IMG/VR virus record: IMGVR_UViG_2711768073_000015 | Length of the DNA: 8,472 nucleotides | Source of the DNA: a virus | Lineage: Duplodnaviria; Heunggongvirae; Uroviricota; Caudoviricetes | Reading direction: 5' to 3' (one strand) | Part shown: in pieces, positions 1 to 8,472 of the stretch | How the letters are laid out: each line of letters opens with the position of its first letter | How positions within the stretch are numbered: position 1 is the first letter of the stretch | Translations under genes and position numbers: made by a program | Notes under the pieces: generated by a model | Database searches by the model: none | Told to the model about the DNA's origin: nothing | Seen by the model: only the letters and a program-made list of their open reading frames with translations

Positions 1-669
1 TTCCTGAATGGCAATATCGCGGGTGTGGGACACAATGGTGTCGATTTCTTCCGGATGAGCAAAGACCATCATATGCCAGTGCACGGTGCCGTCATGGTGA
101 GGCTCCACCGTGCGGATGCCATACCAGCGCAGGCCGTCGCGGTTCAGTTTCTTGCGGACCGCCGCAAAAAACGTGTTAACCAGGTAATCGCTGGAGTCGC
201 GCATGGTGGCCCCGTTCCATTTGGGGTTCGGATGACCGTTCTCCGTTGTTGCGTGGTATTTTGACGGGCAGGTGACAGTCAGAAACACCGCTCTGTCGCC
301 ACGGGCTTCGGCCAGAAGTTCCAGTCCCTTCATGGTGGCCATCATTTCTGCCTTACGGTGAACCGGGTTACTTACTCCCGCGTAATACACTGTCTCGAGA
401 TCAATCGTGAACCCGTCTTCATTTTCCAGCATGAAACTTTTCAGGAAATCGCGTGTTTTCTCGCGCTGTGCGCGAAACTCGCTTAACGCGTCCTGGCTCA
501 GATAGGGTGATGTTTTTCTGGAAACCAGACAGGCGGCGCGGAGTTGTTCTTCTCTCCACTCGCAACGTAACAGCCACAGTTTGCGTTTCCACCATTCCGC
601 ACAGGTCAGGCGAAGGATTGCGCCCGGCAGCAGCTCCGTGTCCGGTTCATTCCTCCGGTCTTTGTCTGT
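1..669. repeat. Direct repeat copy X1 of the gene A core segment (partner 1426..2094; offset 1425 bp)
   Basis: 1..669 aligns to 1426..2094 with a handful of substitutions and no indels (for example 25 matches 1450 and 453 matches 1878 in the ORF track). Homology may continue left of the window edge. Confidence 0.9.
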
Positions 670-2832
670 ATCAACGCCGTCAGGGAGCTGCGGCCACGGT
701 GCTGGCCGTTCTTCCGGCTGTTCTGTCCCGTTGTTGTCCGTTTCCTGTACACGGGGACAGTTATTGCCACGAGTCCAAGGGGCGGCAGGGCCGCCCTGAA
801 GGTCAAAACCATTTTCGCGGGTGCTGTCTTCCGCTTCCGGTTTGCGTCTTACCAGCTTCCAGTTATCCGGATGCGTGCACACACGGGAGGATTCCCCGAT
901 GAGTGGTGACCAGATCCCATAAATCTGTACGCTCTGTTCGCCGTAATCGTTCAGCTCTTCTGCGAGGTCGTAGGCGGTGCGAATCAGGTAGTCTTTGCGT
1001 GGAACAAGCACGCCACCCTGTTTTTCAATGTAGGTGGCAAAACACCCGGCATCAGCGGCAGCGAGTACCGCATCCATTGCGTCATCCTTCAGCCGTTGCG
1101 GGCCTTCCGGGTTGCGTGCCATCTGGCTGGCAAGGCGGCGTAGTTCACGCCACACCTGACGGGAGGGGATGCCAAAGAACTGGAACTGGCGGACCCGGTG
1201 AAGGCGCGCCCAGCCGATGGCGCGCTCCACGCTCTCGGCCATTGATTTTCCGGTTTCGTGGTCAACGCGTGGCTTGCCCGTTTTCGGGTCGATACCATCC
1301 ACGGCGCGGCTGTCCAGGTTCTTTCCGATGTAGGTGGCGATGTAGCTGGTTGGCGTGCCTTTTGAGCCGTCGACATACTCCACCTTAAAGCGCGGAGTAA
1401 TATCATTGCCCAGCTCGTGGCGGTCTTCCTGAATGGCAATATCGCGGGTGTGGGACACAATGGTGTCGATTTCTTCCGGATGAGCAAAGACCATCATATG
1501 CCAGTGCACGGTGCCGTCATGGTGAGGCTCCACCGTGCGGATGCCATACCAGCGCAGGCCGTCGCGGTTCAGTTTCTTGCGGACCGCCGCAAAAAACGTG
1601 TTAACCAGGTAATCGCTGGAGTCGCGCATGGTGGCCCCGTTCCATTTGGGATTCGGATGACCGTTCTCTGTTGTGGCGTGGTATTTTGACGGGCAGGTGA
1701 CAGTCAGAAACACCGCTCTGTCGCCACGGGCTTCGGCCAGAAGTTCCAGCCCCTTCATGGTGGCCATCATTTCTGCCTTACGGTGAATCGGGTTACTTAC
1801 TCCCGCGTAATACACTGTCTCGAGATCAATCGTGAACCCGTCTTCGTTTTCCAGCATGAAACTTTTCAGGAAATCGCGTGTTTTCTCGCGCTGTGCGCGA
1901 AACTCGCTTAACGCGTCCTGGCTCAGATAGGGTGATGTTTTTCTGGAAACCAGACAGGCGGCGCGGAGTTGTTCTTCTCTCCACTCGCAACGTAACAGCC
2001 ACAGTTTGCGTTTCCACCATTCCGCACAGGTCAGGCGAAGGATTGCGCCCGGCAGCAGCTCCGTGTCCGGTTCATTCCTCCGGTCTTTGTCTGTTGTCAG
2101 AGCGTCATAATGTGGAGGCATAGCGTGCAGGTGTAACGCCATGCGGGCCAGCATCTGATACGCCTTCAGCGTTACATCCATGGTCAGCTCGCCATCGGTC
2201 GCGCCAAAGCCATCGCAGAGTTTTTCAAAAGTGCCACTGAACATCGCCGCCGTCATGGTGGCCAGCGTCTGTATCTGGTGTTTGTTGAGCTGCGGCAGGT
2301 AAAGCAAATCGTCCAGGCGTTCGCGTCCGGCAAGGGAGCGATAGCCCGGTGTCAGCCAGCGGCTGTCGGTGCGGTCCAGACGTTCGAATATTTTGCGCAG
2401 GGTTCCGCGCGCGTAGCGTTCAGCCTGCCAGCTCTTTTTGCCTTTCTGACGATCGGCTTCCTGCTTCTTGCGCAGAAAAGAGAGGTGGCGGCTCAGAGGT
2501 TCACGCAGATAAACGGGAAGCACCTTCAGTGTGGCAAAAGCACGGGCCACCGGGTCTTGTTCTGTTGCCTGACGCTTGCTGATGATGCTTTGTGCCAGCT
2601 TTTCACGCTGTCCGGCTTCCTCAAGGGATGCCATGAGTTTTTTACCCACGGTGGATTGTGCGAAAAAGGCTTCTTCCTTCGCTTCCTGTTCTTCCTGTGC
2701 CCTTTTGTTTGCCTCAAGGTAGTAACGGATGGCGCGTTGCAGGTCGGTTTCAGTTTCCTGCCTGCGCTCCGTAAATCTGGCCGGATCAATGGCTGGCCGT
2801 GGTTCATTCCAGCTCCATGCAAACGCACTCAT
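1..2832 (-). CDS. A: Replication initiation endonuclease, P2 gpA family (HUH rolling-circle initiator); partial, runs off the window at its 3' end; contains an in-frame internal repeat
   Basis: Minus-strand frame (codons at 3k+1..3k+3) is open from ATG 2832..2830 to the window edge in every segment I hand-translated (1..420 and 1321..1440); 421..1320 and 1441..2830 were not fully hand-translated, so that stretch is inferred. The ORF track omits it, presumably because no stop lies inside the window. Translation shows TSPYLSQDALSEFRAQREKTRDFLKSFMLENEDG, the HUH motif GIRTVEPHHDGTVHWHMMVF (encoded at 1486..1545 and again at 61..120) and paired tyrosines SYIATYIGK (1321..1347), matching the motif order I recall for P2 protein A. 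Confidence 0.85.
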   Translation of the reverse strand, partial: MSAFAWSWNEPRPAIDPARFTERRQETETDLQRAIRYYLEANKRAQEEQEAKEEAFFAQSTVGKKLMASLEEAGQREKLAQSIISKRQATEQDPVARAFATLKVLPVYLREPLSRHLSFLRKKQEADRQKGKKSWQAERYARGTLRKIFERLDRTDSRWLTPGYRSLAGRERLDDLLYLPQLNKHQIQTLATMTAAMFSGTFEKLCDGFGATDGELTMDVTLKAYQMLARMALHLHAMPPHYDALTTDKDRRNEPDTELLPGAILRLTCAEWWKRKLWLLRCEWREEQLRAACLVSRKTSPYLSQDALSEFRAQREKTRDFLKSFMLENEDGFTIDLETVYYAGVSNPIHRKAEMMATMKGLELLAEARGDRAVFLTVTCPSKYHATTENGHPNPKWNGATMRDSSDYLVNTFFAAVRKKLNRDGLRWYGIRTVEPHHDGTVHWHMMVFAHPEEIDTIVSHTRDIAIQEDRHELGNDITPRFKVEYVDGSKGTPTSYIATYIGKNLDSRAVDGIDPKTGKPRVDHETGKSMAESVERAIGWARLHRVRQFQFFGIPSRQVWRELRRLASQMARNPEGPQRLKDDAMDAVLAAADAGCFATYIEKQGGVLVPRKDYLIRTAYDLAEELNDYGEQSVQIYGIWSPLIGESSRVCTHPDNWKLVRRKPEAEDSTRENGFDLQGGPAAPWTRGNNCPRVQETDNNGTEQPEERPAPWPQLPDGVDTDKDRRNEPDTELLPGAILRLTCAEWWKRKLWLLRCEWREEQLRAACLVSRKTSPYLSQDALSEFRAQREKTRDFLKSFMLENEDGFTIDLETVYYAGVSNPVHRKAEMMATMKGLELLAEARGDRAVFLTVTCPSKYHATTENGHPNPKWNGATMRDSSDYLVNTFFAAVRKKLNRDGLRWYGIRTVEPHHDGTVHWHMMVFAHPEEIDTIVSHTRDIAIQE
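1426..2094. repeat. Direct repeat copy X2 (partner 1..669)
   Basis: Same alignment. Identity ends at 2094/2095, where the two copies continue into different sequence (670.. versus 2095..). Confidence 0.9.
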
Positions 2833-2921
2833 GGCTGGTATCCCGTCACGCGCTGCCACTCCTGTGAGAAGAGGGCGGAAAGGCGGTTAAATTCAGCGGA
2901 GTATTCAATCAGCGAGGCACA
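1799..2921. repeat. Tandem duplication unit, copy 1 (1123 bp)
   Basis: 1799..2921 aligns to 2922..4044 at a constant offset of 1123 with scattered substitutions (for example g2825 versus t3948). The two copies abut directly, head to tail. Confidence 0.9.
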
Positions 2922-3955
2922 ACTCCCGCGTAATACACTGTCTCGAGATCAATCGTGAACCCGTCTTCATTTTCCAGCATGAAACTTTTCAGGAAATCGC
3001 GTGTTTTCTCGCGCTGTGCGCGAAACTCGCTTAACGCGTCCTGGCTCAGATAGGGTGATGTTTTTCTGGAAACCAGACAGGCGGCGCGGAGTTGTTCTTC
3101 TCTCCACTCGCAACGTAACAGCCACAGTTTGCGTTTCCACCATTCCGCACAGGTCAGGCGAAGGATTGCGCCCGGCAGCAGCTCCGTGTCCGGTTCGTTC
3201 CTCCGGTCTTTGTCTGTTGTCAGTGCGTCATAATGTGGAGGCATGGCGTGCAGGTGTAACGCCATGCGGGCCAGCATCTGATACGCCTTCAGCGTTACAT
3301 CCATGGTCAGTTCGCCATCAGTCGCGCCAAAGCCATCGCAGAGTTTTTCGAAGGTGCTGCTGAACATCGCCGCCGTCATGGTGGCCAGCGTCTGTATCTG
3401 GTGTTTGTTGAGCTGCGGCAGGTAAAGCAAATCGTCCAGGCGTTCGCGTCCGGCAAGGGAGCGATAGCCCGGTGTCAGCCAGCGGCTGTCGGTGCGGTCC
3501 AGACGTTCGAATATTTTGCGCAGGGTTCCGCGCGCGTAGCGTTCAGCCTGCCAGCTCTTTTTGCCTTTCTGACGATCGGCTTCCTGCTTCTTGCGCAGAA
3601 AAGAGAGGTGGCGGCTCAGAGGTTCACGCAGATAAACGGGAAGCACCTTCAGTGTGGCAAAAGCACGGGCCACCGGGTCTTGTTCTGTTGCCTGACGCTT
3701 GCTGATGATGCTTTGTGCCAGCTTTTCACGCTGTCCGGCTTCCTCAAGGGATGCCATGAGTTTTTTACCCACGGTGGATTGTGCGAAAAAGGCTTCCTCC
3801 TTCGCTTCCTGTTCTTCCAGAGCCTTTTTGTCTGCCTCAAGGTAGTAACGGATGGCGCGTTGCAGGTCGGTTTCAGTTTCCTGCCTGTGCTCCGTAAATC
3901 TGGCCGGATCAATGGCTGGTCGTGGTTCATTCCAGCTCCATGCAAACTCACTCAT
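2909..3955 (-). pseudogene. Truncated 5' duplicate of replication gene A (348 codons; lacks HUH and Tyr core)
   Basis: ATG at 3955..3953 overlaps the TGA of the upstream ORF (ATGA). Translation MSEFAWSWNEPRPAID... is near-identical to the N-terminus of the copy starting at 2832. The frame breaks 13 nt after the duplication junction (2921/2922) at TGA 2911..2909 because the 1123-bp unit is not a multiple of 3. The ORF track lists it from a GTG at 3982. Confidence 0.6.
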
Positions 3956-4044
3956 GGCTGGTATCCCGTCACGCGCTGCCACTCCTGCAAGAAGATGGTG
4001 GAAAGGCGGTTAAATTCAGCGGTGTATTCACTCAGCGAGGCACA
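2922..4044. repeat. Tandem duplication unit, copy 2 (1123 bp)
   Basis: As above. The segment 2922..3217 is a third copy of 374..669 and 1799..2094. Confidence 0.9.
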
Positions 4045-4341
4045 CCCGCCAGCAGTGCGATGCGCCAGCATTGCCGCAAATACGGAGGCCGGGGAGTCGT
4101 AATACGCCAGCAGTGATTCGCCGTGCGGTGTCAGGCAGTGCAACGCCAGTCCGTGTGGTGTGAAGTCCACGCGGTAGCAGTCGTCTACTGTGAAATAAAG
4201 GGTATCCACATTCTCCGGTTTTGTAGTGCGTGCTCTGTTGTCACGACCACGGATGTAAAGATCAAATAATCCTTGGAGAACGGGAGCCAGACGGGTGTCC
4301 TGTGTGCGCACCCATCTTGTGAAGTCATGAGCGTCAATCAT
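3952..4341 (-). CDS. Hypothetical phage early protein (129 aa), immediately upstream of and coupled to gene A
   Basis: ORF track; ATG at 4341; stop TGA 3954..3952 overlaps the A-type start codon. A copy of its last 89 bp is duplicated at 2833..2921. Confidence 0.6.
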   Translation of the reverse strand: MIDAHDFTRWVRTQDTRLAPVLQGLFDLYIRGRDNRARTTKPENVDTLYFTVDDCYRVDFTPHGLALHCLTPHGESLLAYYDSPASVFAAMLAHRTAGGCASLSEYTAEFNRLSTIFLQEWQRVTGYQP

Positions 4342-4449
4342 GCTGCAATTCTCTCTACTAAGGATGTGCGAAGGCTTCCTGCCAAAAAACTCAGAAGCGG
4401 TCGGTTACAGAAATTGGCGTTCTACGAGTAGTTATTGCTGGCTTGAGGT

Positions 4450-4668
4450 TCATTTCTGTTTAATTCCGTGCATGCTGTAGAAGAAATCAAAAGTGTTATC
4501 TATGCGTATCATGAGCTCACGCTGCATCGCTTCTGGTGTTTCTGGTTCACCTGGTGAGCCAACTCCCGCGAAGAAATCACCGATCTCGCTTTGAATAAGT
4601 GCCTTTAGCGTTGCTGAGGAATTCAGGTGTGTGCGGTGATGTCTGCGAGTGATTCTTCTCCTGCTCAT
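4450..4668 (-). CDS. Hypothetical small phage protein (72 aa)
   Basis: ORF track; ATG 4668..4666 overlaps the TGA 4667..4665 of the upstream ORF (ATGA coupling). Confidence 0.5.
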   Translation of the reverse strand: MSRRRITRRHHRTHLNSSATLKALIQSEIGDFFAGVGSPGEPETPEAMQRELMIRIDNTFDFFYSMHGIKQK

Positions 4669-4868
4669 TTACGTGAATCCTGTACCTGTCGGATAAGATT
4701 CACCCGCGCCACATTAGTGGCGCAGAAGTAAGTACCGTCAGTGAGATAGATGTGGTGTGCATCCTTTTCTGAGCGGTGTTTGTCGATTGTGGTAATCAGG
4801 CGTTCGTCGACTTCGTATTCACGTCCTCTGGAAGTGAAACGAACGACAGGAAAATGCTTAATTGCCAT
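4665..4868 (-). CDS. Hypothetical small phage protein (67 aa)
   Basis: ORF track; ATG 4868..4866 preceded on the minus strand by AGGAGG (complement of 4873..4878) with a 4-nt spacer. Confidence 0.55.
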   Translation of the reverse strand: MAIKHFPVVRFTSRGREYEVDERLITTIDKHRSEKDAHHIYLTDGTYFCATNVARVNLIRQVQDSRK

Positions 4869-4955
4869 TACGCCTCCTGGGCGTGTGCGAATACCTCCGC
4901 GAATGCGGATTGTTTTTACATTTTCTTATTTAACCTAGGGTTTTTATTTGCGCTG

Positions 4956-5069
4956 TTATTCGCCAGTGAAAAAGCGTTCAATCTTTTTTACTGAATGAAT
5001 AATTTGCATAATCCCAATGGCGCAGACCACCGAAATAATCAGAACAAGCCATGAGATAAATATACTCAT
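4956..5069 (-). CDS. Putative small hydrophobic membrane peptide (37 aa, MSIFISWLVLIISVVCAIGIMQIIHSVKKIERFFTGE)
   Basis: Hand-translated; not in the ORF track (too short). ATG 5069..5067 overlaps the TGA 5068..5066 of the upstream 80-aa ORF; stop TAA at 4958..4956. Residues 3 to 24 are almost entirely hydrophobic, consistent with one transmembrane helix. Confidence 0.4.
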   Translation of the reverse strand: MSIFISWLVLIISVVCAIGIMQIIHSVKKIERFFTGE

Positions 5070-5308
5070 GCAATATTCCCCAGCTTATACGGTTCAATAT
5101 GCTCCCCGCATTCTGCGGCACAGATCAGCTCGGAAAGTTCGTTAAGTGCATCCAGATCATCAGCGTAAAAAGCCACGTCATACAGACTCCGGATTGCCCT
5201 GGTCAATGAGTCACGGGCTGCACGTTCAGCATGAGCACCTGATGCACTTAAGCGAAAATAAAAACGCTCAAGTGCTTTGTTAATGAGAGTTTTATATTCT
5301 TTGCCCAT
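5066..5308 (-). CDS. Hypothetical small phage protein (80 aa)
   Basis: ORF track; ATG 5308..5306; lies 11 nt downstream of the stop of the preceding ORF in the same operon. Confidence 0.55.
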   Translation of the reverse strand: MGKEYKTLINKALERFYFRLSASGAHAERAARDSLTRAIRSLYDVAFYADDLDALNELSELICAAECGEHIEPYKLGNIA

Positions 5309-5319
5309 CGCAACGCCCT

Positions 5320-5598
5320 TTAATCTGCTTTCTGAATTTCAGCTTCTGAATCTATACAAATAATTTCGATATAGGGTTCATCGCCATTAATCTTACGTGC
5401 TTTTTCAGCTTCGCTAATGATTCCGTGTACAGTCTGGTACGGAAGTTCTACGGTCAGGCGCGTGCCGTTCAGATAAACGTAAGTAGCTGCATTTTTTTCT
5501 GATGGGACAACTCCATCAATAGCTGATGCGCGCAATAACAGTTCACCGCGAAAATCAATAAAACGGATAAATACACCTTGTGCATGCTCTTTGGTCAT
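5320..5598 (-). CDS. Hypothetical small phage protein (92 aa; start chosen at internal ATG)
   Basis: ORF track gives 5320..5697, but that N-terminus overlaps the upstream ORF. ATG at 5598..5596 is preceded by AGGTG (complement of 5603..5607) and lies 10 nt after the upstream stop (5611..5609). Confidence 0.5.
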   Translation of the reverse strand: MTKEHAQGVFIRFIDFRGELLLRASAIDGVVPSEKNAATYVYLNGTRLTVELPYQTVHGIISEAEKARKINGDEPYIEIICIDSEAEIQKAD

Positions 5599-5608
5599 AA
5601 CGCACCTG

Positions 5609-5947
5609 TTATAAATCAGTCTGTTTAATAAAACTTTGCCTGCGAAGCAGACGATCAACCGTGCGAAGTGCTTCGTACAATGTGAAATCCTGTCCAAACT
5701 GATTGTCGCCGTTGCTCAGAGCAAAAATGCGGTTTCCGGTAAATGGGTTGCGTTGGCATCTCTGAACCACGATTCCAGCTTTTTCAATCAGCCAGGTGTG
5801 TTCGCCAATTTGTTTTACTGTATGGCCATCTGGCGTTGCGTGCGTCTCGCTCAGGCTGTAGCGGATGTTGCTGCGTGATGCGCTGGTAGCGAAACGGTTA
5901 GCTTGGCGTTCCGTTTCGGTGCGAAAATTACGGCGTTGCTTCAGCAT
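5609..5947 (-). CDS. Hypothetical phage early protein (112 aa)
   Basis: ORF track; ATG 5947..5945 preceded by GAGGTG (complement of 5953..5958); 14 nt after the stop of the first early gene. Confidence 0.55.
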   Translation of the reverse strand: MLKQRRNFRTETERQANRFATSASRSNIRYSLSETHATPDGHTVKQIGEHTWLIEKAGIVVQRCQRNPFTGNRIFALSNGDNQFGQDFTLYEALRTVDRLLRRQSFIKQTDL

Positions 5948-5961
5948 AAAATGACACCTCG

Positions 5962-6240
5962 TTATTTTGTCATCTGCACGTATTTCTCTGCGTTTCTGAT
6001 GGTTTTCAGGAAAATTGCGAAGAGATTTACTGTACGTTTTGAGTTTTTTTCTTCTTGGTTGATGGGAAGGGCTGCTCTGTCAGCCTGCCTTTTCACTGCA
6101 TTAACAGTTTGATTGGTACGCTTCGCGTAATCTTTCAGGCTTTCTTCGAGTACCGGTAATCCATGCTCATCGCGGTATGGGTAGAACGCCGCCAAACGCT
6201 CAAAATCCGCTTGCTCGTATGTGTTCAAGAGCTTTGTCAT
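5962..6240 (-). CDS. First gene of the early (lytic) operon, in the Cox/Apl position; sequence not recognisably P2 Cox
   Basis: ORF track (92 aa); divergent from the C-like repressor gene across a 91-bp switch region. The call is positional only. Confidence 0.5.
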   Translation of the reverse strand: MTKLLNTYEQADFERLAAFYPYRDEHGLPVLEESLKDYAKRTNQTVNAVKRQADRAALPINQEEKNSKRTVNLFAIFLKTIRNAEKYVQMTK

Positions 6241-6331
6241 GATGTGATAACCTGTTCAGTCTGTGGTTATTTGTTGCTAAAAGTCGTCTATAGGCGACTT
6301 TTAGGGTTAATTTAGTCGTCTGGAGACCACC
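6241..6331. promoter_or_regulatory. Divergent immunity-switch region with candidate operator sites
   Basis: Near-perfect 28-bp palindrome ctaaaagtcgtcta/taggcgacttttag at 6277..6304 (10-bp arms perfect, one mismatch in the inner 4 bp). Direct repeats of agtcgtct at 6282..6289 and 6314..6321. GGAG at 6322..6325 sits 6 nt before the repressor ATG at 6332. Confidence 0.5.
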
Positions 6332-6643
6332 ATGTCAAGTGGGTACGAAAAAAAACTGAAAGAGATACGGAAAAGTGAAGGGTTAACTCAAGCTGAGTTT
6401 GCTGATGTTACTGGGATAAATCTCGGAACTATAAAGAATTATGAGAGCGGTAAAAGAGAGGTTGGTTTAAGCGTTGTTGATCGCGTAATTAATTCTAAGG
6501 ATTTCGAAAAATACACTATATGGCTTATGACGGGAAAAACAAATGAGGCTGCTGGGCAGATCAGTCCCTCTCTCTCCCCTGATGGGCCAGAAAACACATC
6601 GTCTTCTCAAAAGCCCCGCAAGACTGGTACACAGCCCGGCTAA
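6332..6643 (+). CDS. C: Immunity repressor, P2 C-like (helix-turn-helix)
   Basis: ORF track (103 aa). The segments LTQAEFADVTGINLGTIKNYESGKRE and FEKYTIWLMTGKTNEAAGQISPSLSPDG closely parallel the P2 C repressor as I recall it. Positioned immediately upstream of int on the same strand, as in P2. Confidence 0.8.
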   Translation: MSSGYEKKLKEIRKSEGLTQAEFADVTGINLGTIKNYESGKREVGLSVVDRVINSKDFEKYTIWLMTGKTNEAAGQISPSLSPDGPENTSSSQKPRKTGTQPG

Positions 6644-7672: not shown

Positions 7673-8035
7673 GTGAAGTTTCATTTAGATGAACTTAAAA
7701 GAATGGCAACGCTCGATAATTTTGCGCGTTTTCTCAATGAGTCGTCTACGAATGAAAAATGTTTGTCGTGTGGCGATACGGATATGTACATGTATTTGAC
7801 GAATATTGTTGAGGTGGGGCCTGAGCCGAAAACTGCTGAGGAGTGTGATTTAGGCACTTTTGTTATGCTTGATTACATCGGTCCATTTACTGGGTATCCG
7901 GGATATGAGGGACATGATCGGGAAAATATCCATAACTATGAATTCCGACTTACCTGTAACAGATGTGGGTTTGTTCATCGTTACTCGGCCCGGGCCTTTA
8001 TGAACTGGGTAGGCAAGCAGGGTGATGAGAAGTGA
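7673..8035 (+). CDS. Hypothetical protein with two CxxC pairs (putative zinc-binding), 120 aa; translationally coupled to int
   Basis: GTG start at 7673, 2 nt after the int stop, with AGGAGG at 7658..7663 (9-nt spacer) inside the int 3' end. Motifs CLSCGD and CNRCGF. Stop TGA 8033..8035. Confidence 0.6.
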   Translation: MKFHLDELKRMATLDNFARFLNESSTNEKCLSCGDTDMYMYLTNIVEVGPEPKTAEECDLGTFVMLDYIGPFTGYPGYEGHDRENIHNYEFRLTCNRCGFVHRYSARAFMNWVGKQGDEK

Positions 8036-8472
8036 TGGCAGAGAATGTTGCACATATTTCGCGGTTCAGAAAAAAGAAAGAGAATGCCTATAATGTATCC
8101 AACAACCAAGTAACAGGAAGTGGTAATGATGGAGGTGATGGCATGAATGACGACCTTGAACGGCGGGTCAGTTGCCTGGAAAGTGATGTGACTGAAATCA
8201 AAAACAACCTGATTACTCTCACCACAAGAAGCGAATCCTTTGCTACCAAATCTGATGTACTGGAGATTCGCGAAGGGTTGAGGCTTGAGATGGCAGAATC
8301 GCGCCAATCCCTGAAGTCTGAGATGGCTGATTTACGCCAGTCTCTGAAAGTTGAGATGGCTGAGCATCGTACTGAACTTCAGAAATCATTTGCAAATCAG
8401 ACTTGGTTACTCACAGGTATTGTCCTGTCTGCGATGGCCGTGCTTGTGGCTGTGGTTACTGTTATTAAGTAA
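8035..8472 (+). CDS. Tail-anchored coiled-coil membrane protein (C-terminal TM helix); start ambiguous (8035 or 8143)
   Basis: ATG 8035 overlaps the upstream TGA (TGATG). An alternative ATG at 8143 has a strong GGAGGTG at 8131..8137 with a 5-nt spacer. Three 11-residue repeats EMAESRQSLKS / EMADLRQSLKV / EMAEHRTELQK precede a hydrophobic C-terminus WLLTGIVLSAMAVLVAVVTVIK (about 8404..8469). Stop TAA 8470..8472 is the last codon of the window. Confidence 0.65.
   Translation: MAENVAHISRFRKKKENAYNVSNNQVTGSGNDGGDGMNDDLERRVSCLESDVTEIKNNLITLTTRSESFATKSDVLEIREGLRLEMAESRQSLKSEMADLRQSLKVEMAEHRTELQKSFANQTWLLTGIVLSAMAVLVAVVTVIK
8287..8385 (+). repeat. Three imperfect 33-bp tandem coding repeats
   Basis: gagatggcagaatcgcgccaatccctgaagtct / gagatggctgatttacgccagtctctgaaagtt / gagatggctgagcatcgtactgaacttcagaaa, encoding the 11-residue coiled-coil repeats of the last gene. 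Confidence 0.8.

Follow-up and report, generated by a model that had tools for sequence, protein, structure and literature searches.

Layout and putative control region of the early operon

The window, the whole 8,472-nt stretch of phage DNA that we analysed, carries a run of eight small ORFs on its minus strand between positions 3952 and 6240. Each ORF is 37 to 129 codons long, and we number them orf1 to orf8 towards replication gene A, which follows directly. A sequence-only reading had described seven ORFs here; the chain and its coordinates stand, and the count rises to eight. The sizes, ATGA overlaps and gaps of 10 to 14 nt that it listed are as described. From orf1 to gene A, gaps of 14, 10 and 11 nt come first, followed by an ATGA overlap, a gap of 87 nt, a second ATGA overlap, a gap of 108 nt and a final ATGA overlap. 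The overlaps fall at orf4/orf5, orf6/orf7 and orf8/gene A, with the ATG of gene A at 3955. The geometry of these joins suggests translational coupling along the chain, and phage early operons are normally as compact and overlapping as this.

Comparison with the phages Chuche and P88 revealed clear purifying selection in five of the eight ORFs and less clear constraint in orf5 and orf7. These pN/pS values indicate that the ORFs of the chain are more than chance reading frames. The claim that none of them matches a recognised protein was too strong: seven of the eight match PHROG families, and two of these also match Pfam DUF families. NCBIfam returned no match for any small ORF, and PDB sequence searches with six of them gave only noise. 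On the RNA side, Rfam gave no match at E ≤ 0.1, neither of the two long gaps between genes folds more stably than shuffled sequence (z = -0.8 and +0.5), and we detected no intrinsic terminator on the minus strand between the genes.

Divergent from the operon lies a P2 C-type immunity repressor of 103 aa (C; 6332..6643, plus strand; phrog_147, E = 3e-35). At 37% identity to P2 C (E = 6e-23), it bears out the suggestion that the repressor is P2 C-like. When the eight ORFs and C were compared by blastp and phmmer with every early protein of P2 and 186, only C gave a significant match, with weak ones for orf1 to Cox and orf4 to B. The start of C lies 91 bp from that of orf1, the first gene of the early operon, on the opposite strand. 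A candidate early promoter, Pe, occupies 6309..6338 on the minus strand, with a -35 element TTGACA (6338-6333), an 18-nt spacer and a -10 element TAAATT (6314-6309). It matches the consensus at 10 of 12 positions, and a scan of the region gave two sites against 3.4 expected by chance. Its -35 element overlaps the first codons of C. This geometry mirrors that of P2, whose record has the -35 of Pe at the start codon of C, and the consensus match suggests that the site may act as Pe. Operator-like repeats lie here as well (6277..6321, minus strand): the 8-mer AGACGACT lies at 6321-6314 and 6289-6282, on either side of the -10 element, and the window holds four copies of it where 0.24 would be expected. 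A palindrome with 12-bp arms, a predicted leader hairpin with z = -4.5, spans 6277-6304. By analogy, these repeats may correspond to O1 and O2 of P2.

The first and last small genes

The gene in the Cox position, orf1 (5962..6240, minus strand; 92 aa; phrog_11533), had been described as unlike P2 Cox. By sequence family this is correct: unlike P88 gp03 (5e-28) and Chuche CDS0018 (1e-22), orf1 does not match Pfam PF10743 (Phage_Cox) at E ≤ 0.1, and its sequence matches are weak (phrog_575 'Cox-like', E = 4e-5; P2 Cox by blastp, E = 1e-3). At the level of fold the description does not hold. The AF2 model of orf1 (pLDDT 79) has a strand-helix-helix-strand-strand-helix topology, and its best Foldseek match among 350,542 PDB chains was 4LHF, P2 Cox, with a probability of 0.99, an E-value of only 0.05 and TM scores of 0.45/0.52. 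Judged from this model, orf1 is a distant Cox-like protein, a winged helix that shares its C-terminal helix with the crystal structure of P2 Cox, and we correct its annotation to Cox-type although Pfam does not recognise it. Its presumed roles are to repress Pc and to serve as the excision directionality factor.

At the other end of the chain, orf8 (3952..4341, minus strand; 129 aa; phrog_3237; pN/pS 0.16) shares an ATGA at 3952-3955 with gene A, and P2 orf83 likewise overlaps the A start. While orf8 itself has no match to PF17399 (DUF5405) at E ≤ 0.1, two of its full-length relatives do: P0242, which is 34% identical and immediately precedes a Phage_GPA gene, scores 29 bits against a cut-off of 21.6, and P0249 matches with E = 6.5e-4. 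Aligning the orf8 family against P2 Orf83 and 186 CP83 with hhalign gave a probability of 82% (E = 1e-5, 76 columns), and only 24% with a shallower alignment. These comparisons point to orf8 being a remote DUF5405 relative of the P2 Orf83/186 CP83 type, by a link that is transitive and profile-based, and we re-annotate it as a probable pre-A gene of that type. The NCBI name for orf8, 'inositol monophosphatase', was ruled out, as it has no Pfam support and the protein is 129 aa long.

The 5' part of gene A (2909..3955, minus strand) encodes a Phage_GPA domain, identified by Pfam (E = 4e-46). According to the 186 record, translation of A in that phage is coupled to, and needs, translation of the gene upstream of it. 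Here the stop of orf8 overlaps the start of A, and A is therefore probably translated by coupling as well. Mapping to L003 and the junction sequence show that the gene is cut after 345 codons, at a rearrangement junction (2921/2922). To the left of the region, gene A forms an odd partial triplication that we found in no other genome: its junction sequences did not turn up among GTDB representative genomes, in IMG/VR or in any complete E. coli genome.

A conserved core and a variable cargo slot

The six ORFs between orf1 and orf8, which we assume to be accessory, have no counterpart in P2 or 186, and local hhalign comparisons of IMG/VR-derived family alignments with P2 and 186 proteins gave nothing above 25% probability. 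Five of the six make up a lineage-specific core, all on the minus strand. The first, orf2 (5609..5947; 112 aa; DUF4761; pN/pS 0.12-0.22 against Chuche and P88), begins with a conserved, basic tail and continues as a small domain of beta-sheet plus helix. Within the N-terminal 30 residues, E13, R14 and R18 are invariant, and all but a short helix at 12-20 is predicted to be disordered; its ERxANRF stretch presumably resembles the arginine-rich motif of lambda N. Neither the PDB nor BFVD holds a confident structural relative of the orf2 model, so its fold may be new. The next gene, orf3 (5320..5598; 92 aa from its ATG; phrog_3800, E = 5e-56; pN/pS 0.17-0.53), has no sequence relative in the PDB. 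The most conserved ORF of the chain is orf4 (5066..5308; 80 aa; DUF4754, Pfam E = 3e-54), which is 100% identical to P88 gp06 with pN/pS of 0-0.02. From its sequence, orf5 (4956..5069; 37 aa) appears to be a small hydrophobic, single-pass membrane peptide; P88 gp07, which bears the annotation 'membrane protein', is 95% identical to it. The last core gene, orf6 (4665..4868; 67 aa; phrog_3459, E = 3e-45; pN/pS 0.10-0.32), follows the 87-nt gap with a strong AGGAGG ribosome-binding site. A literature search found no paper that mentions DUF4761 or DUF4754, and the P88 paper says nothing about the early genes.

Downstream of the core, the spacing from orf6 to gene A varies from 735 to 2126 nt across IMG/VR loci. 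In P88, the cargo between gp08, the equivalent of orf6, and the pre-A gene gp15 amounts to about 2.2 kb and comprises genes for a wHTH protein, an Ead/Ea22 protein, a membrane protein, a lipoprotein and a derepression protein, whereas the window has only orf7 (4450..4668, minus strand; 72 aa). Residues 28-68 of orf7 correspond to the C-terminus of P88 gp10 (66% identity to residues 61-101), and it matches phrog_4144 from profile position 34 only. From these alignments, we take orf7 to be what a deletion has left of an Ead/Ea22-like gene, marking a variable cargo slot that is collapsed here to 72 aa, and we correct its annotation to that of a remnant.

Whether orf7, and possibly orf5, are leftovers rather than functional coding sequence is a serious question, and we give the idea a substantial chance, somewhat below even. 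On this account orf7 consists of the last third of an Ead/Ea22-like gene joined to a new start; RefSeq flags its 3' two thirds as a pseudogene, and its pN/pS is 0.45, based on few changes. Against Chuche, orf5 has six synonymous and six non-synonymous changes, and the Chuche ORF is shortened to 30 aa. However, the start of orf7 is still ATGA-coupled, Chuche and at least 40 IMG/VR loci carry the ORF intact, and orf5 is kept in 77 of 80 such loci. The leftover account also touches only these two ORFs, and it is compatible with our main explanation of the region as a P88-like early operon.

Relatives of the operon and possible functions

The window maps at 99.6% identity to a prophage beside btuC in E. 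coli MS1657, and positions 3952-6330 are 100% identical in the RefSeq genome of E. coli 13KWH46. Of 5426 complete E. coli genomes, 1383 match the region at least partly, and 175 of these cover at least 80% of it. Over orf2 to orf6, its DNA is 91-93% identical to Chuche, P88 and other Xuanwuvirus phages in conserved order (in Chuche, through orf8), and the same order from orf1 to orf8 and A occurs in 33 of 80 IMG/VR loci. P88 (NC_026014 gp03-gp16) and Chuche (PP925824 CDS0018-0027) share the Cox-position gene, DUF4761, phrog_3800, DUF4754, the 37-aa membrane peptide, phrog_3459, a variable slot, a pre-A gene and a gene A of about 940 aa, and their counterparts of orf2 to orf6 are 77-100% identical at the protein level. 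Chuche extends the likeness to orf7 (93% identity) and orf8 (96%), whereas P88 gp15, in the same position as orf8, is just 23% identical to it. Rather than being out of the ordinary, as the sequence-only reading had it, the region is by these comparisons what P88-like (Xuanwuvirus) prophages ordinarily carry as their early operon. It is a well-sampled module, already annotated, from a lineage of prophages that is common in E. coli, and it is represented in public genomes and family databases.

That reading's proposal of a mosaic immunity and early region does hold. DNA similarity to P88 and Chuche ends at about 5911, within the 5' end of orf2, and the orf1-C-int immunity module is therefore a cassette swapped relative to both phages. 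They carry true Pfam Phage_Cox proteins and other C and int genes, whereas the window has phrog_11533.

Compared with P2 (cox, orf78, B, orf80-83, A), the operon has the same divergent C/Pe layout, a first gene of Cox type, a last small gene that overlaps A and is probably a remote relative of Orf83, and the Phage_GPA domain. Of the P2 genes whose presence would have made the region ordinary, only orf83 has a probable relative, the remote orf8; orf78, B, orf80, orf81 and orf82 have no counterparts, and six lineage-specific ORFs stand in their place. Phage 186 (apl, cII, fil, dhr, CP80-84, A) offers a different likeness, a long run of small, overlapping, mostly non-essential ORFs from the excisionase/repressor gene to A. 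Its DUF5405 gene, CP83, lies one gene further upstream of A. Unlike the window, 186 has a CI-type repressor, and homologues of its cII, fil, dhr, CP80-82 and CP84 were not detected in the window.

The absence of a P2 B-sized gene was correctly noted. At 129 aa, even the largest ORF falls short of P2 B (166 aa), and we found no B homologue in the region or, by tblastn, across the complete genome of Chuche, the closest phage. The best B match aligned orf4 with residues 115-155 of P2 B (E = 0.006 by blastp against a database of 20 proteins; E = 0.025 by hhalign), and orf4 was dropped as a B relative at an hhalign probability of 2%. Because the B gene is also absent from the 186 record, its absence here is not special. 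Phage 186 replicates through A and the host loader DnaC, with no B-like gene.

We conclude, with a probability of about 85%, that a P88-like (Xuanwuvirus, P2-family) prophage has integrated here next to btuC in E. coli and that the region is its early lytic (Pe) operon. Transcription would start at a sigma-70 promoter whose -35 element overlaps the divergent C start and would run leftwards through the eight small genes into gene A. It would begin with orf1, probably a very divergent Cox-type winged helix, pass through a core that this phage group has and P2 and 186 lack, then through the variable cargo slot, and end with orf8, whose overlap with A probably couples the two. Lacking the P2 B loader, the phage would presumably use A and host DnaC, as 186 does.

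The conserved middle ORFs could be early host-takeover or anti-defence proteins, with orf5 as a Fil/Kil-like division inhibitor, for example, or others inhibiting restriction or further defences. They are small, early, under purifying selection and confined to one phage lineage, and they carry no enzymatic or DNA-binding signatures; 186 has fil and dhr at the analogous place, and the cargo slot lies within the same operon. We nevertheless regard this only as a tentative possibility, since the ORFs have no homology to any characterised inhibitor. A PADLOC profile scan matched none of the eight ORFs to a defence-system protein, in a library of defence rather than anti-defence proteins.

It is very unlikely that a small protein is a non-homologous replacement for the B loader, for which orf4, orf8 and the A-proximal pair would be the candidates. 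P2 requires B as its DnaB loader (PMC12661323) and no such gene is present here, and another report describes phages as often swapping loaders non-homologously (PMC11087808). The A protein has 946 aa against 761 aa in P2, 185 aa more, and the replication module therefore differs. But the orf4 match to B is not significant, 186 manages without a B-like gene, and orf8 probably belongs to the Orf83/CP83 family, annotated 'not essential' in the 186 record.

The least credible proposal makes orf2 an RNA-binding or antitermination factor acting, like lambda N, through the conserved, arginine-rich helix within its basic N-terminus, most of which is predicted to be disordered: early-operon terminators are antiterminated in 186 according to its record, but the conserved intergenic gaps here hold no boxB-like or significant RNA structure, no Rfam match and no detected minus-strand terminator, and the rest of orf2 is a folded domain, in contrast to lambda N.

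Taken over orf2 to orf6, it is unlikely that any core protein has a new function, whether in host takeover or anti-defence with a new fold or mechanism or as a non-homologous stand-in for P2 B. As the early operon of a common, well-sampled and annotated E. coli prophage lineage, the region is of little import as it stands. Since about 25% of complete E. coli genomes carry the lineage-specific core, at least partly, it is a reasonable and cheap target for toxicity and anti-defence screens.

Layout and lineage of the early operon

Upstream of the replication gene A, the early operon at 3952-6240 consists of eight consecutive minus-strand ORFs: orf1 (6240-5962, 92 aa), orf2 (5947-5609, 112 aa), orf3 (5598-5320, 92 aa counted from its ATG; the mechanical ORF list begins it earlier, at a TTG), orf4 (5308-5066, 80 aa), orf5 (5069-4956, 37 aa), orf6 (4868-4665, 67 aa), orf7 (4668-4450, 72 aa) and orf8 (4341-3952, 129 aa). 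Counted from orf1, the first three joins leave 14, 10 and 11 nt between genes; an ATGA overlap comes next, then 87 nt, a second ATGA, 108 nt and a final ATGA, which joins orf8 to the gene A ATG at 3955. The layout that the sequence-only reading described holds, with eight ORFs in place of the seven it counted. Compared with phages Chuche and P88, orf2, orf3, orf4, orf6 and orf8 are under purifying selection (pN/pS 0 to 0.53, mostly <0.25), and substitution patterns against the same phages make constraint less clear for orf5 and orf7.

E. coli MS1657 and strains like it carry, next to btuC, a prophage that is 99.6% identical to the window, and 3952-6330 occurs as a 100% identical stretch in E. 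coli 13KWH46. Among 5426 complete E. coli genomes, 1383 match this segment at least in part, and in 175 of these at least 80% of it is covered. Chuche DNA is 93% identical from orf8 to orf2, and P88 and other Xuanwuvirus phages (Peduoviridae) are 91-93% identical from orf6 to orf2, with gene order kept throughout. The identical order from orf1 through orf8 to A also recurs in 33 of the 80 IMG/VR loci retrieved via the DUF4761 gene. Given this shared identity and gene order, 3952-6240 is the usual early operon of a P2-family prophage lineage that is very common.

PHROG families match seven of the eight ORFs (E 1e-22 to 1e-59), every family being labelled 'unknown function'; orf5 has no PHROG match. 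In Pfam, orf2 is DUF4761 and orf4 is DUF4754. Profile searches of NCBIfam and PADLOC gave no match for these ORFs, and sequence searches of the PDB returned only noise. An anti-defence role for the five-gene, lineage-specific core is a possibility.

Remote P2 counterparts and the replication module

Compared directly and by profile with all the P2 and 186 early proteins, the ORFs gave no counterpart of P2 orf78, B or orf80-82, nor of 186 cII, fil, dhr, CP80-82 or CP84. Two ORFs, orf1 and orf8, have remote P2 counterparts.

Only 19 relatives of orf8 turned up when 1.84 billion representatives were searched exhaustively with HMMER. Its full-length distant relatives match Pfam DUF5405, to which P2 Orf83 and 186 CP83 belong (P0242, 29 bits against a cut-off of 21.6; P0249, E 6.5e-4), and hhalign aligned the orf8 family with Orf83 and CP83 over 76 columns at 82% probability (E 1e-5). 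Position agrees as well: the P0242 gene immediately precedes and overlaps a Phage_GPA gene, as orf8 does here and orf83 does in P2, and P88 gp15, at the same position, is an orf8 relative with 23% identity. The 129-aa orf8 protein (3952-4341) is named 'inositol monophosphatase' in more than 1000 NCBI and UniRef entries. We rejected this NCBI name, which has no profile support, in favor of a probable DUF5405-like phage protein; it looks like a propagated misannotation.

The first gene, orf1, occupies the position of Cox, the P2 protein that represses Pc and directs excision. It does not match the Pfam Phage_Cox model, which the first genes of P88 and Chuche do match. It does match the 'Cox-like' PHROG 575 (4e-5), and the recognition-helix region of P2 Cox aligns with it. 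Its AlphaFold model (pLDDT 79) has a strand-helix-helix-strand-strand-helix topology, and the best match among 350,542 PDB chains is 4LHF, the P2 Cox crystal structure (probability 0.99, E 0.05, TM 0.45-0.52). On the strength of the PHROG match, the alignment and the model, we filed orf1 as a putative divergent protein that would work like Cox and is not a Pfam Phage_Cox member. Homology to P2 ORFs, which the sequence-only reading said would make the region ordinary, was found in part, because orf8 is probably Orf83-like and orf1 is Cox-like at fold level; the region is ordinary, and is already in public genomes and family databases.

No homologue of P2 B, the DnaB loader (PMC12661323), was found in the early-operon region. 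The complete Chuche genome also has no B: tblastn with all P2 and 186 early proteins returned C, Cox and A, a weak match to Orf83, and nothing else. The earlier claim that B is missing was right. The A protein is 946 aa, compared to 761 aa in P2, with its GPA domain at residues 185-509. Phage 186 is likewise without B and depends on host DnaC. Most simply, the replication module would resemble that of 186 and encode no loader of its own. A non-homologous loader among the small ORFs would be an unlikely alternative, which nothing supports.

Mosaic immunity cassette and candidate regulatory sites

Similarity to P88 and Chuche ends at ~5911, within the 5' end of orf2; orf1, the divergent repressor gene C (6332-6643, plus strand) and the integrase gene int are therefore exchanged as one unit. 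C encodes a repressor of the P2 C type (37% identity, E 6e-23), and the mosaic immunity region proposed from the sequence is borne out. Such an exchange agrees with published evidence on P2-like phages, whose regulatory regions differ widely from genome to genome and show recombination relative to the structural genes (PMC3448106).

A good sigma-70 match on the minus strand at 6338-6309 (TTGACA, an 18-nt spacer and TAAATT) is a candidate early promoter, Pe, through which the operon would be regulated. Its -35 lies on the first codons of C, a geometry like that of P2 Pe. The 8-mer AGACGACT forms a direct repeat, 32 bp apart, flanking the candidate -10 (6282-6289 and 6314-6321). It has four copies in the window against 0.24 expected, all on the minus strand, the others lying inside orf8 (4179-4186) and just beyond int (7740-7747); three of the four read TAGACGACT. 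These two outlying copies could be distal repressor or Cox sites, analogous to the flanking sites of 186 CI, or could be due to chance. A palindrome with 12-bp arms (6277-6304) stands at the start of the leader. The stretches between the genes hold neither a minus-strand terminator nor an Rfam family, and their RNA shows no significant structure.

A variable cargo slot and a rearranged gene A

Most of orf7 is a pseudogene according to RefSeq. It matches its own PHROG from profile position 34 only, and over residues 28-68 it shares 66% identity with the C-terminus of P88 gp10, an Ead/Ea22-like protein. Between its orf6 and orf8 equivalents, P88 carries a MarR-like wHTH gene, Ead/Ea22, a membrane protein, a lipoprotein and a 'derepression protein'. 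Spacing from orf6 to A ranges from 735 to 2126 nt among IMG/VR loci, with the window in the shortest class. The operon thus has a variable cargo slot, which is collapsed in the window. In the 87-nt gap before orf6 (4869-4955), a small hairpin, ACGCC-CAGGA-GGCGT, would enclose the strong AGGAGG ribosome-binding site of orf6, and a plus-strand terminator-like hairpin lies at 4896-4909; as a whole, the gap is no more stably folded than shuffled sequence.

To the left of the operon, gene A is a patchwork, partly triplicated across 1-4044 with junctions at 669/671 and 2921/2922. From 2922 onward the window is collinear with the reference prophage, and the first copy (3955 to 2909) stops short after 345 codons. 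The reference gene A returns in positions 671-2921 as a 2.1%-divergent allele that extends from 89 nt before the gene start to codon 721. This second copy starts at 2832, after a duplicate of the last 89 nt preceding the A start (the 3' end of orf8). Past codon 721 it continues through one untemplated base, in frame, into codon 247 and off the window's left end, giving 944 open codons; 1-669 are codons 247-469 once more. Short imperfect microhomology and a single untemplated base are seen at the two junctions. Searches of the 5426 complete E. coli genomes, the representative genomes of GTDB and IMG/VR found neither junction, and the triplication is a private rearrangement or else an assembly chimera. 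Within the second copy, CAATAACTGT at ~757-766 (minus strand; nt 2067-2076 of gene A), ~90 nt from gene A rearrangement junction A, is identical to the conserved core beside the ori nick sites annotated in P2 and 186, and probably marks the phage's origin.

The stretch from int to the prophage end on the btuC side contains two cargo genes (7673-8035 and 8032-8472, plus strand). The product of the second is coiled-coil-like, with a hydrophobic C-terminus and an imperfect 33-nt (11-aa) tandem repeat (8279-8344); its only PADLOC match is a weak one to LmuB (E 0.007). Outside the window, in the P88-like prophages L003 (967-2245) and L001 (1-1086), gene A is immediately followed by genes for a ParM-type segregation ATPase and a partition protein, which are unusual for an integrating P2-like phage and hint at a plasmid-like stage.
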